A DNA stretch of 64,000 nucleotides, taken from assembly GCF_988243305.1 (NCBI RefSeq), contig NZ_OZ547136.1; one strand, written 5' to 3'. Numbering within the stretch: the stretch's first letter is position 1; each line of letters opens with the position of its first letter. The position numbers were made by a program. Positions 21,901 through 24,900 of this stretch are shown one piece after another.

Positions 21901-24900
21901 GCGTCTCCCTGCGCGGGATTTTTTTGTCCATAAGAAAGCCCCTCCGGAGAGGGGCTGGAGAGTGGCGCTATGTGCCATTGCATGGTGCCGGGTGCCTCCC
22001 GGTGAATTCAGTACCAGCACCTGAATCCGCGATTATCCCATATACCTACTCGCTGATTGCCCCTCCGCACAGGGGGATTCACCATGCCAGTTTCTTTTAA
22101 CAAACTCCCCGCAAAACAGACAACTGTCAACCGTCTGAATTGTGAGACATTTAAAAAAAAGGCCCGCAAAAGCGAGCCAGGGAAAATAAGTGTGGCGCGT
22201 TGTACTGGATTCGAACCAGTGACCGATTGCTTAGAAGGCAATTGCTCTGTCCGGCTGAGCTAACAACGCAGGGTACAGATAATGGACCGCCATCGAGGAC
22301 TCGAACCCCGCGCAACCAGCTTCGAAGGCTGGCGCTCTATCCTGATGAGCTAATGGCGGTATGTGATGGTGGCCCTTGCTGGATTTGAACCAGCGACCTG
22401 GCGATTATGAGTCGCTCTCACCACTGAGCTAAAGGGCCGGGAGCCGCATAATAACGACGCGTAATTAATTCTTCAATATCATCCGTTCTGGCTGACTAAA
22501 TCCTGTACTTCCCGAACCGTCTGCTCAAAACATTCAGTCTCCAGCTCAACGCCAATTGCACGACGCCCGAGCGCCAGTGCTGCTTTGACGCTACGGACAT
22601 AAAAAAGCCAGCCACTGGGGGAGGCTGGCGAAACTCGTAGAGCAAAAGTGTTGTTACACTAACTTCGTCACAGGGTTATCCTGCAATACTCAAAATACAC
22701 AATATTTACAAAACTAATAGTATACAAGGCGATCTTTAAGATTTTGTTATAAATTATTGCCTTTCTCCTCTTTCCATGAGCTTTCTGGGTAGCCACAGAA
22801 TTCCGGGTACAGAAAAACCCGCTCAGCGGCGGGTTTAAGCTGTGTGACGAAGTAACCACTCTTAACAGCATAACCAATTTTTTACGTACGTAAACCACTA
22901 AATGATATTTGCGAGAATGCTACCGAGTATTGAAAACACCACTACAAATACATAAGCAAATCTCAACAAATAACCAACAAATAATTTCCAGTGTTATTTT
23001 TAGCCGGTTTAAATTGAACCTTCAAATTATAGAGCACTTATAAATAACAGCCGTTAATATAAATTGGCTAATAGATTTATTTTTATTCAGCCAAGAGCCA
23101 TGAATAGGATTCGATAGAAAAAAGTTCAGATAAAAATAGAGATCTACTTCACAAATCAAACGAGAAACCAAAACTAACATCTTGAAATAATCACATTGAT
23201 TAGATGAATATTTATCGCGCAGTGACATCATTTTTTAATAATAGTTCAAAAAAAGGGCTCACGATGAAAAAATTAACAGTGGCAATTTCTGCTGTAGCTG
23301 CATCAGTACTGATGGCGATGTCTGCTCAGGCAGCTGAAATTTATAATAAAGACAGTAACAAGCTGGATCTGTACGGGAAAGTTAATGCTAAGCACTATTT
23401 CTCCTCTAATGATGCAGATGATGGTGATACTACTTATGCCCGTCTTGGCTTCAAAGGTGAAACCCAAATCAACGATCAACTGACTGGTTTCGGTCAGTGG
23501 GAATATGAATTCAAAGGCAACCGCGCTGAATCTCAAGGTTCCTCCAAAGATAAAACCCGTCTTGCCTTCGCTGGCCTGAAATTCGGTGACTACGGCTCAA
23601 TCGATTACGGCCGTAACTACGGTGTAGCATACGACATCGGTGCGTGGACTGACGTTCTGCCAGAATTCGGTGGCGATACCTGGACCCAAACAGATGTGTT
23701 CATGACTGGTCGCACCACTGGTGTTGCAACTTATCGTAACAACGACTTCTTTGGTCTGGTTGATGGTCTGAACTTTGCTGCTCAGTATCAGGGTAAAAAT
23801 GACCGCACTGACGTAACTGAAGCTAATGGTGATGGTTTCGGTTTCTCCACTACTTATGAGTATGAAGGATTCGGTGTAGGTGCAACCTATGCTAAATCTG
23901 ACCGCACTAATAATCAGGTTATCTACGGTAACAACAGCCTGAATGCATCTGGTCAAAATGCTGAAGTATGGGCAGCTGGTCTGAAATATGATGCGAACAA
24001 CATCTATCTGGCTACCACCTATTCTGAAACCCAGAACATGACTGTTTTTGGTAATAACCATATTGCCAACAAAGCACAAAACTTCGAAGTAGTTGCACAA
24101 TATCAGTTCGACTTCGGTCTGCGTCCGTCCGTTGCTTACCTGCAATCTAAAGGAAAAGACTTGGGTGCGTGGGGTGATCAGGACCTGGTTGAATATATTG
24201 ATGTAGGTGCAACCTATTACTTCAACAAAAATATGTCCACTTTTGTTGATTACAAAATCAACCTGATTGATAAGAGCGATTTCACGAAAGCATCTGGCGT
24301 TGCTACCGATGATATCGTTGCTGTAGGTATGGTTTACCAGTTCTAATTTGATTACTAAAAGATATGTTGCGGGAGGCTTTGCCTCCCCAACATATAAGTG
24401 GCTCCCTCAAGCCACTTCCTTTAGGAGCACAACCTTGCTTCTAACTATATAAACCTTCTGTTATATATTACCCTTTATTTTTGGGGGCGTTGCAACGCCC
24501 CATTTTTAATAATTTTTAGTAAACAATTGGCATATTAATTAGAGTTATTAACAACGATATCCATCTCTAACCGGATATCTAATGCCATTAACATCCCTTC
24601 AATTATGCCCTCAGCCTTCTGTAACCTTTTCCCGATATAACCATCAGAGCAGCAATGCTTACCTGCCAGTGACATGAATGTCATACCGACTACATAATAA
24701 TCTACTAATAAATCGTGCAAATCGCTGTTGTTCTTTTTCAGACGGGCCATGCACCCGCAAATAATCATCGCGTCATCGTCACAACATTGCGGGCGAGATT
24801 TTACTTTTGAAGTAATTAATCCCTTAAAACCGGCGGCAATGGACGACCAGGTCACATCTTCATGATTATTAGCCGCCCACGCTCCCCAGCGTTCGAGAAC

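Follow-up and report, generated by a model that had tools for sequence, protein, structure and literature searches.

Layout of the locus

The window, that is, the whole stretch of DNA that was analysed, comprises 64,000 nucleotides of contig NZ_OZ547136.1 (RefSeq assembly GCF_988243305.1). On its minus strand, which is the late strand, the elements of the locus follow one another in the order late promoter PR', initially transcribed region, terminator T1, StxS module with terminator T2, methylase remnant, tRNA promoter and the tRNA genes ileZ-argN-argO (Table 1). Both terminators lie shortly downstream of PR', and ORFs for lysis, terminase, head and tail functions then follow on the same strand. 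The prophage appears to be lambdoid and to be without stx at the place where Stx phages carry it, as homology to a Stx2 phage ends at the position of its stx2AB and the matched flank holds no stx homology.

Table 1. Features of the late control region, in coordinates of the window
Feature	Position	Strand	Description
Antiterminator gene Q	24535-24918	-	QuuD / phage 434 / PA-2 allele, Q82 family
Porin gene (NmpC/Lc/OmpC-like)	23264-24346	+	Between Q and PR', on the opposite strand to both; PF00267, E = 3e-153
Late promoter PR'	22867-22894	-	-35 TTTACG (22894-22889), 16-nt spacer, -10 TATGCT (22872-22867)
Inferred start site and first 24 transcribed nt	22837-22860	-	Start at A22860; presumed Q-binding/pause (qut) region
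Terminator T1	22811-22836	-	First intrinsic terminator of the PR' transcript, +25 to +48
StxS module	22590-22812	-	223-bp mosaic segment between T1 and the methylase remnant
RNase E site	22685-22689	-	GU|AUU; predicted cut after U22688 (+173)
StxS_S-like processed small RNA	22601-22687	-	87 nt, including T2
Terminator T2	22601-22629	-	Second intrinsic terminator; equivalent of the mapped tR' / StxS 3' end
N6/N4 DNA methyltransferase 3' remnant	22479-22592	-	Pseudogene; 36 codons and TGA (22481-22479)
Promoter of the tRNA cluster	22448-22476	-	TTGAAG, 17 nt, TATTAT; 9/12 in the consensus scan
tRNA genes ileZ (CAU), argN (UCG), argO (UCU)	22193-22438	-	ARAGORN, Rfam tRNA and RefSeq annotation
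Terminator after the tRNA genes	22161-22178	-	GGCTCGC..GCGGGCC, then T8; in the scan, next terminator downstream of the remnant

Late promoter and its distance from Q

The Q protein encoded in the window belongs to PF06530 (E = 4e-53 in Pfam), as does Q933, and is 97% identical to Q of phage 434. In the identical stretch of strain B1-56, its gene is annotated as quuD by PGAP. A cognate Q of the right family is encoded upstream, on the same strand as PR', and 434 and DLP12 combine these two alleles of Q and PR' in the same way. From the stop codon of Q to the core of PR' there are 1,675 nt, a stretch that holds the porin gene, which also lies between Q and PR' on the opposite strand in phage 434, DLP12 (qsr') and PA-2 (J02580).

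The promoter aligns with the 'putative late promoter' of VT1-Sakai and with the promoter of the start site mapped in Sakai Sp5, where Sy et al. 2020 (PMC7547250) used dRNA-seq and Term-seq to locate PR' and tR'. It matches 8 of the 12 positions of the sigma-70 consensus, which is below detection by the promoter scan, and TAnnnT at -12 to -7 is kept in every allele examined. When the Sakai coordinates are transferred through the alignment to Sp5, the late start falls on A22860, 7 nt past the TAnnnT of the -10 element. For this transfer, the Sakai start (1,266,203 in NC_002695.1, equal to position 846 of L006) was corrected by the 142-nt shift between sequence versions. After this shift, three independent landmarks fit: the start lies 7 nt past TAnnnT, +173 is a U within GUAUU, and the final U of T2 is where the 3' end comes to lie. 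In the record of VT1-Sakai (AP000400), the annotation likewise includes the promoter, a qut site at +8 to +15 and both terminators, with T1 described as a terminator for the pR' transcript.

The first 24 transcribed nucleotides are identical to those of 434 and DLP12, and the core AGTGGTTAC is kept across alleles. In phage 82, the QBE (the element bound by Q) and a pause element lie within the transcribed part, where the pause is at +25 (PMC4914094). A convincing -10-like pause hexamer or QBE was sought in +1 to +24 of the window and none was located with confidence; positions +7 to +12 read TACTTC, a poor -10-like pause sequence, versus TACATT in Sakai.

The preliminary description had tentatively placed the late promoter and Q-utilisation region away from Q, displaced by the porin. 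This is supported by homology, namely by the coordinates transferred from Sakai, the annotation of VT1-Sakai, the single occurrence of the PR' core and the gene order in 434 and DLP12; all of these point to a putative control region about 1.67 kb from Q, beyond the opposite-strand porin. The word insertion needs a qualification. All 35 phage records that match this Q allele also match the flank adjoining the porin, at a coverage of at least 80% of a query made of the 3' half of Q and the downstream flank. Phages with this Q allele but without the porin were sought among these 35 records as proof of an insertion, and none was found, so the porin 'insertion' rests on comparison with other Q82-family phages.

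It could also be supposed that the true late promoter lies directly downstream of Q, as in lambda and 933W, with a transcript that runs antisense through the porin, and that the element at 22860 is a decayed leftover. PR' does abut or overlap the end of Q in Sakai Sp5 and PhiR49_2, and GTTTAC-TAAAAATT, which follows the stop codon of Q in the window, resembles the -35 element and spacer of PR'. Nevertheless, a second PR' next to Q was not found by a core search and a promoter scan of the window: the conserved core occurs just once, and the consensus scan shows no promoter-like site on the minus strand from 24534 to 24347. The core at its present place is also undamaged, with 97.8% identity to that of 434 and DLP12. 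Phage 434, moreover, is viable with the same layout, where PR'-T1 lies 120 bp upstream of the holin gene. This alternative is thus very improbable, and the most likely late transcription start of the prophage is placed 1.67 kb from Q, past the porin gene.

Two terminators on the late transcript

That the late strand carries two intrinsic terminators about 200 nt apart, as described earlier, is borne out by their stable folds, and their spacing is about 210 nt. T1 consists of AAACCCGC-CGCUGA-GCGGGUUU with a run of five U, three of which are the last bases of the stem, followed by CU. Its minimum free energy is -15.7 kcal/mol (z = -4.0), and none of 200 shuffled sequences was as stable. T2 consists of GCCAGCC, a 9-nt loop and GGCUGGC, followed by U6, with a minimum free energy of -14.7 kcal/mol (z = -3.7) and, again, none of 200 shuffles as stable. 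The 3' end obtained by Term-seq in Sakai (1,266,460 in version.1) corresponds to the final U of this run.

A simple terminator scan misses both, T1 because some of its T run is taken up into the longest stem and T2 because its 9-nt loop exceeds the limit of 8. The omission of T1, T2 and PR' by the scans is an effect of thresholds and not absence, given the folding, the homology and the T1 allele of K-12 DLP12, which the same scan does detect.

T1 looks like an efficient terminator. Among alleles, its stem is invariant and its loop is variable. In 434 and DLP12 no other terminator precedes the holin gene, and no other was found between nmpC and essD in K-12. It may be the equivalent of the terminator of phage 82. 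T1 is absent from the main text of Sy et al. (PMC7547250).

StxS module and its small RNA

The interval between T1 and T2 is a homologue of StxS, a characterised regulatory small RNA, and is blank in the automatic annotation. T2 would end a 260-nt StxS-like RNA. According to the alignments to Sakai and the fold of T2, this homologue lies between PR' and tR' and has its 3' end at a U-run terminator. Matches to the module come from 291 phage records, with identities of 83-84% (92% for one partial H-19B record), and these are overwhelmingly Stx-converting phages. In E. coli, the loci with a StxS module number roughly 690. In Sakai, RNase E cleaves StxS at +173 within GU|AUU, and the PR' start and the tR' 3' end are 258 nt apart (PMC7547250). 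In the alignment to Sp5, the window allele keeps this motif at the same place, and its cleavage there is predicted.

Within the module, conservation is highest in the processed form, StxS_S: it is 93% identical to Sakai, while identity is 75% in the upstream 123 nt and 82% over StxS_L. Pairing with the rpoS leader, as predicted by restricted RNAduplex, has an energy of -28.0 kcal/mol for the window and -27.3 for Sakai, against -14.3 +/- 3.4 for shuffled sequences; a full-length comparison of StxS_S with a 200-nt piece of this leader told nothing, as shuffles scored equally. In silico, the seed of the window allele is complementary to the activating region of the rpoS 5' UTR, and the single substitution in it (A to G) results in a G-U pair.

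T1 alone may be thought to act as the functional tR', with the segment from T1 to T2 forming an independent small RNA gene whose own promoter yields the StxS-like RNA as a primary transcript. T1 is indeed a canonical terminator, 434 and DLP12 have no other one on the way from PR' to the holin gene, a module boundary lies immediately past T1, and the dRNA-seq of Sy et al. called a primary start at the 5' end of StxS_S (PMC7547250). Against this, that 5' end was recovered by RLM-RACE without TAP and coincides with an RNase E motif, and StxS_L builds up in an rne-ts strain (PMC7547250). In addition, the scan shows no sigma-70-like promoter between T1 and the 5' end of StxS_S in the window. An independent gene is therefore unlikely, and a processed product of the PR' transcript is preferred.

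Some candidates were discarded. As an internal sigma-70 promoter for StxS_S, the best hexamers found by eye were TTGTAA and TATTGC, 17 nt apart, the latter without the essential final T. In a 7-kb scan with Rfam 15 at E <= 1, matches to Qrr over T2 and to Trp_leader over T1 were at chance level, and no StxS-type match was obtained.

Methyltransferase remnant and tRNA promoter

The preliminary description also reported a short frame resembling the C-terminus of a DNA methyltransferase without its catalytic part, and proposed a decayed gene. The frame reads ..SVKAALALGRRAIGVELETECFEQTVREVQDLVSQNG before its stop codon and is longer than the stretch that had been quoted. A tblastn search with its 37 residues, suggested earlier as a check, does find similarity: 290 phage records match, with a best E of 1e-14 and 84-95% identity to annotated methylase C-termini, and several matches are annotated as DNA methylase or methyltransferase. 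In Pfam, the fragment aligns with positions 197-220 of the 221 of PF01555, a match that is weak and sub-threshold when taken alone (E = 0.078).

An intact gene occupies the same place, directly upstream of ileZ-argN-argO, in Stx2a_WGPS2 (352 aa; PF01555, E = 9e-44). The remnant corresponds to codons 317-352 of this methylase, that is, 10% of the gene. The catalytic DPPY motif (TDPPYF, at about aa 33-38 in WGPS2) is missing from it, and so is the AdoMet-binding FxGxG (FMGSGS, at about aa 308-313), which lies just upstream of the breakpoint, where the window has the sequence of T2. Since these motifs are lost and homology is to the methylase C-terminus only, the 36-codon fragment is a piece of a pseudogene and not a member enzyme of PF01555. 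PGAP makes the same call on the same bases in strain B1-56 (methyltransferase pseudogene 'missing N-terminus'), and together with the intact WGPS2 gene this supports the decay that had been proposed. The 'methylase' is a dead remnant and is not to be counted as a gene.

A functional small protein made from this frame, or from an overlapping short ORF, might be invoked to explain why the fragment is kept in almost all of 290 phage records and why some depositors annotate an ORF there. Yet no in-frame start codon exists past T2, the frame upstream runs through the terminator hairpin, and both the catalytic and the AdoMet motifs are lost. The fragment also varies in its amino acids between alleles: the window reads ETECFEQ where P13803 reads ETERFEQ and where Sakai has yet another sequence. 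Taken with the pseudogene call, this makes a functional product extremely improbable, and the fragment, as a dead remnant, would have no function of its own.

The earlier view that the remnant is flanked by the two terminators does not hold, as on the late strand T1 and T2 are both found on its 5' side. For the tRNA cluster, the promoter begins 3 nt past the stop codon of the methylase. In Sp5, a primary start between tR' and stx2AB drives the tRNAs (Sy et al., PMC7547250). One may speculate that the remnant persists due to this abutting promoter.

Mosaic structure and overall reading

Homology to 434, WGPS2 and PhiR49_2 stops in all three at 22812/22813. For WGPS2 and PhiR49_2 it resumes at 22589, and VT1-Sakai diverges at about 22592. 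These joints show that two phage lineages have recombined at the locus: the Q-porin-PR'-T1 segment of the 434/DLP12 type is joined, just after T1, to the StxS-T2-methylase remnant-tRNA segment of the Stx-phage type. About 1.4 kb, made up of a small ORF and 90% of the methylase gene, would have been replaced by the StxS module, leaving the fragment behind. The StxS homologue, the position of T1 inside the PR' transcript, the tRNA promoter 3 nt past the stop codon and the recombination between two lineages had not been noticed in the preliminary description.

Taken together, the locus is, with a probability of about 0.85, the known late-gene control region of a lambda-like (lambdoid) E. coli prophage with a gene remnant. 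The analysis shows which sequence elements are present and that they are homologous to elements mapped or annotated elsewhere, and it also shows where the mosaic joints lie and that the methylase motifs are lost. From these we infer the activity of PR', loading by Q, the efficiencies of the terminators and the expression and function of the small RNA in this strain; start, processing and termination are all carried over by homology at 73-93% identity.

In the lysogen, PR' would fire constitutively and most transcripts would stop at T1. Those passing T1 would end at T2 and give a StxS_L-like RNA of about 260 nt, which RNase E may trim at GU|AUU to an Hfq-type small RNA of about 87 nt, capable of pairing with the rpoS leader. 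Once the prophage is induced, Q from the PR transcript would work in trans, and the porin between Q and PR' would be harmless because Q is trans-acting. The Q82-family antiterminator would load on RNA polymerase while it pauses a short way downstream of PR', at the presumed Q-binding and sigma-dependent pause signals of the 24-nt region. The polymerase so modified would ignore T1, T2 and later terminators, and would transcribe the tRNA genes and the genes for lysis and morphogenesis.

The region is of a kind already described, and ordinary, and its importance beyond correct annotation is slight. What is mildly new is that the prophage has a divergent StxS allele and, in its matched flank, no stx homology. 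If this allele is expressed, rpoS-activating RNAs of the StxS type may not be specific to Stx phages, and could rather form a mobile cassette, with recombination directly past the conserved T1, and with T1 as an attenuator setting the flow from PR' into the small RNA; this reading is tentative, at somewhat less than even odds. For work on StxS, the locus adds a further case in which the cassette is not carried by a toxin phage, and draws attention to a strong terminator inside the 258-nt precursor.

Comparison with known systems

In lambda, PR' is constitutive, a short terminated leader, the 6S RNA, is made in the lysogen, and Q acts at a promoter-proximal pause to read through terminators. 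The lambda QBE lies between -35 and -10, and there is a single tR' at +194. The window would share the constitutive late promoter, the short terminated leader and the loading of Q at a pause. By contrast, lambda Q lies outside PF06530 and is unrelated to the Q family of the window, and one tR' stands against T1 and T2. No sequence similarity was found between the region of the window and PR'-6S RNA-tR' of lambda.

Phage 434 and DLP12 of K-12 are much closer, with PR' and T1 97.8% identical and the order Q-porin-PR'-T1-holin. They differ in that the holin gene follows about 120 bp past T1, with no StxS module, T2, methylase remnant or tRNA genes, and their homology stops at 22812.

Downstream of this point, Stx2a_WGPS2 (YP_009909071, 352 aa, PF01555) and PhiR49_2 (a 92-aa remnant) resemble the window in having a methylase between PR'-T1 and ileZ-argN-argO, and the last 36 codons are 89-95% identical in protein. 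In WGPS2, however, T1 is followed by a small ORF and the whole methylase, of which the window retains 10%, and PhiR49_2 has its own independent deletion of the gene.

Finally, the Stx prophages of Sakai differ from the window in several respects. The promoter and initially transcribed region of the window are of the 434/DLP12 allele, at about 74-75% identity to Sakai. Its Q is 1.67 kb off, behind the porin, whereas Sakai Q overlaps the -35 element. The window is also without stx at the stx2AB position, and the 5' 123 nt of the module are just 75% identical. In spite of these differences, Sp15/VT1-Sakai and Sp5/VT2-Sakai share with the window the -35 TTTACG, the -10 TAnnnT, the start at the A of AGUGG, T1, GU|AUU at +173 and T2 at about 258-260 nt past the start. 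Sp5 then continues in the same order, with the methylase remnant, the promoter of the tRNA genes and ileZ-argN-argO. The Sakai Stx prophages also encode a Q of the same Pfam family, and StxS_S is 93% identical, with the predicted pairing to the rpoS leader kept.

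Probable late promoter and its terminators

Two hairpins that resemble intrinsic terminators, T1 and T2, follow one another on the late strand of the window upstream of the tRNAs, as the preliminary description had noted. This observation is confirmed, and its interpretation as the region of the late promoter PR' and its terminator tR' is supported. The folds have minimum free energies of -15.7 kcal/mol (T1, z = -4.0; the last three stem bases are counted among its five U's) and -14.7 kcal/mol (T2, z = -3.7), with none of 200 shuffled sequences as stable in either case. Neither was listed by a simple terminator scan of the window, because of the thresholds of the scan itself; the same scan picks up the T1 allele in K-12. 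All alleles compared (window, 434, K-12, Sakai, WGPS2, and PhiR49_2) have the identical T1 stem, CCCGC/GCGGG, but differ in the loop: that of the window is CGCTGA and that of Sakai CGATGC, while 434 and K-12 share CGTCGA, and WGPS2 and PhiR49_2 share CGCGA.

Features of the late region; a slash separates stem arms or marks the RNase E cut
Feature	Position	Strand	Details
Q gene	24918->24535	minus	PF06530
Porin gene	23264-24346	opposite to Q	
Non-coding stretch	between porin gene and tRNAs		760 bp
PR' -35	22894-22889	minus	TTTACG; transferred from Sakai by alignment
PR' -10	22872-22867	minus	TATGCT; transferred from Sakai
Putative transcription start	A22860	minus	transferred from Sakai
T1	22836-22811	minus	AAACCCGC/GCGGGUUU stem, 6-nt loop, five-U run
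T1 within PR' transcript	+25..+48	minus	transferred from Sakai
RNase E motif	22689-22685	minus	GU/AUU; transferred from Sakai
T2	22629-22601	minus	GCCAGCC/GGCUGGC stem, 9-nt loop, U6 run
T2 end	+260	minus	transferred from Sakai
tRNA promoter	22476-22448	minus	promoter scan
Three tRNAs	3' of non-coding stretch	minus	CAU (annotated ileZ), UCG, UCU
Sialate-esterase-like gene, then lysis and morphogenesis genes	after tRNAs	minus	

In Sakai, the PR' start has been mapped at 1,266,203 and the tR' 3' end at 1,266,460, 258 nt downstream of it; RNase E cuts in GU/AUU at +173, yielding the 74-nt small RNA StxS, and a further start site drives the tRNAs (Sy et al. 2020, PMC7547250). The main text of that paper does not mention T1, which looks like an efficient terminator inside the 258-nt StxS precursor. 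The window aligns from 22895 to 22448 with the Q-to-tRNA interval of Stx2 phages at ~85-88% identity. Published Sakai coordinates refer to NC_002695.1 and the aligned sequence is version.2; the shift between the two is inferred to be 142 nt, in part on the basis of the old stx2A coordinate. Checked on the Sakai sequence, this shift places the start at an A, 7 nt after TATCAT, +173 at the U of GUAUU, and the 3' end at the last U of T2.

Independent annotation comes from the VT1-Sakai GenBank record, where a 'putative late promoter' is entered along with, at +8..+15, a 'putative Q-utilization' site, and each of the two hairpins is labelled 'putative rho-independent terminator for pR' transcript'. 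Given this annotation and the Sakai mapping, the two-terminator architecture has therefore been described previously, and the earlier proposal of a pR'/tR' and Q-utilisation region would, judging by sequence, be right. Phage 82 has its Q-binding and pause elements within transcribed sequence, the pause being at +25 (PMC4914094); the strongly conserved +1..+24 fits these positions. A pause element was sought in the 434/DLP12 allele and none was pinpointed.

Methylase remnant

The title of the preliminary description placed a methyltransferase remnant between the two terminators; in fact, both lie upstream of it. The short reading frame quoted there is real, running to ..TVREVQDLVSQNG and a TGA at 22481-22479. 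The proposed tblastn comparison with phage methyltransferases, using 37 residues, matched 290 phage records at E values down to 1e-14; some of these carry the annotation DNA methylase. Stx2a_WGPS2 has an intact 352-aa gene (PF01555, E = 9e-44) in this position, immediately before ileZ-argN-argO, and homology in the window begins at codon 317 of that gene. Two motifs of the intact enzyme are absent from the remnant: the catalytic DPPY, which lies close to the N-terminus, and the AdoMet motif FMGSGS, which immediately precedes the breakpoint. In strain B1-56, PGAP annotates exactly bases 22592-22479 as 'site-specific DNA-methyltransferase, incomplete, missing N-terminus'. The reading as a decayed gene devoid of its catalytic part is therefore correct, and the decayed methylase is already in public annotation. 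PhiR49_2 keeps 92 methylase codons, which points to a deletion probably independent of that in the window. Three nt separate the end of the 36 remaining codons from the -35 of the tRNA promoter, and among the tblastn phage records the remnant is kept wherever the tRNAs occur; speculatively, its retention may be linked to that promoter.

Putative StxS-like RNA and its cassette

Identity to Sakai is 93% in the processed part (22687-22601) and 75% in the 123 nt that precede the RNase E site. In silico, the 5' part of the processed RNA is predicted to pair with the activating region of the rpoS leader at -28.0 kcal/mol (Sakai, -27.3; shuffles, -14.3 +/- 3.4 kcal/mol), and the single substitution in CCCUGU(A>G)ACGAA would give a G-U pair. 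For the processed form, StxS_S, dRNA-seq called a primary 5' end, and RLM-RACE and rne-ts data favour processing (PMC7547250); a convincing internal promoter for it was sought in the window and none was found.

Homology to 434, WGPS2, and PhiR49_2 breaks at 22812/22813, right after the T1 U-run, and that to the latter two returns at 22589, where homology of the remnant starts; VT1-Sakai, which has neither remnant nor tRNAs, diverges at ~22592. Because homology breaks at both ends, the 223 bp between these joints form a discrete cassette, which replaces ~1.4 kb of WGPS2 (a small ORF and 948 bp of the methylase gene). It occurs in 291 records of the phage collection, overwhelmingly Stx-converting phages, at 83-84% identity (92% in one partial H-19B record). 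The cassette or part of it is found in 686 of 5,426 complete E. coli genomes, and the PR'-T1 core or more in 2,978. The locus is a recombinant of Stx-phage and 434/DLP12-type lineages. Its matched flank has no stx homology.

Several neighboring features were also observed. An apparent 'empty stx site' lies at 22116-22152: homology to Stx2 phage P13803 ends at 22152, at a point 51 nt short of the stx2A start of that phage, and returns at 22149, 42 nt past the stx2B stop, as a short, weak match of only 34 nt. The interval from the post-tRNA terminator to the esterase gene, roughly the place of stxAB in Stx phages, holds at 21926-22116 (minus) a strong, full-length hit to the Rfam sRNA family STnc100 (RF02076; 139 bits, E = 1e-31) that ends in its own terminator (21956-21937). 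Further on, a 268-aa ORF of unknown function (18673-19479, minus) separates a putative holin (19484-19777) from downstream lysis genes. The 2.9 kb around the locus are 99.97% identical to B1-56 (100.0% in another search). The flanks differ, as noted at 25000-27631 of the window: in B1-56, DUF968-Q is preceded by KilA-N and RusA genes and the downstream side holds a 71-aa class II holin, whereas the window has a DnaB-like helicase upstream and, in place of the holin, a 97-aa ORF. These differences indicate further mosaicism.

Distance between Q and the putative PR'

The late region had been described as displaced ~1.8 kb from Q by the porin gene. The displacement is supported, as the conserved PR' core occurs once in the window, beyond the porin gene, and a promoter scan shows no promoter-like site on the late strand between Q and that gene; the distance from the Q stop codon to the putative start is 1,675 nt. 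Q antiterminators act in trans, so that, from what is established about Q antitermination, the separation should have no mechanistic cost. Like Q of Stx2 phages, that of the window belongs to the phage-82 family.

Thirteen nt past the Q stop, at c. 24505-24522 (minus), GTTTAC-TAAAAATT resembles the -35 and spacer of PR' (GTTTACgtacgTAAAAAATT, 22895-22876). This string may be the trace of an older PR' that stood next to Q, on the left side of the porin cassette, or it may reflect chance in AT-rich DNA. Q and the porin gene converge on a perfect GC-rich hairpin, GGGGCGTTGCAACGCCCC (24484-24501), which is assigned as the porin terminator because its T-run is on the plus strand only; early transcription leaving Q would proceed antisense into the porin gene.

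When phage records were searched with the 3' half of the window Q allele and its downstream flank, all 35 with a query coverage of 80% or more also match the flank, which adjoins the porin gene, as does the partial PA-2 record J02580 (55% coverage). Each element found here has a known counterpart, mapped, annotated, or published, in Stx phages, 434, PA-2, or DLP12. Phage 434 and K-12 DLP12 share with the window Q (97% identical) and an opposite-strand porin gene followed by PR' and T1 (97.8% identical), but have a holin gene ~120 bp after PR'-T1; in K-12, T1 is the sole terminator between PR' and the holin gene.
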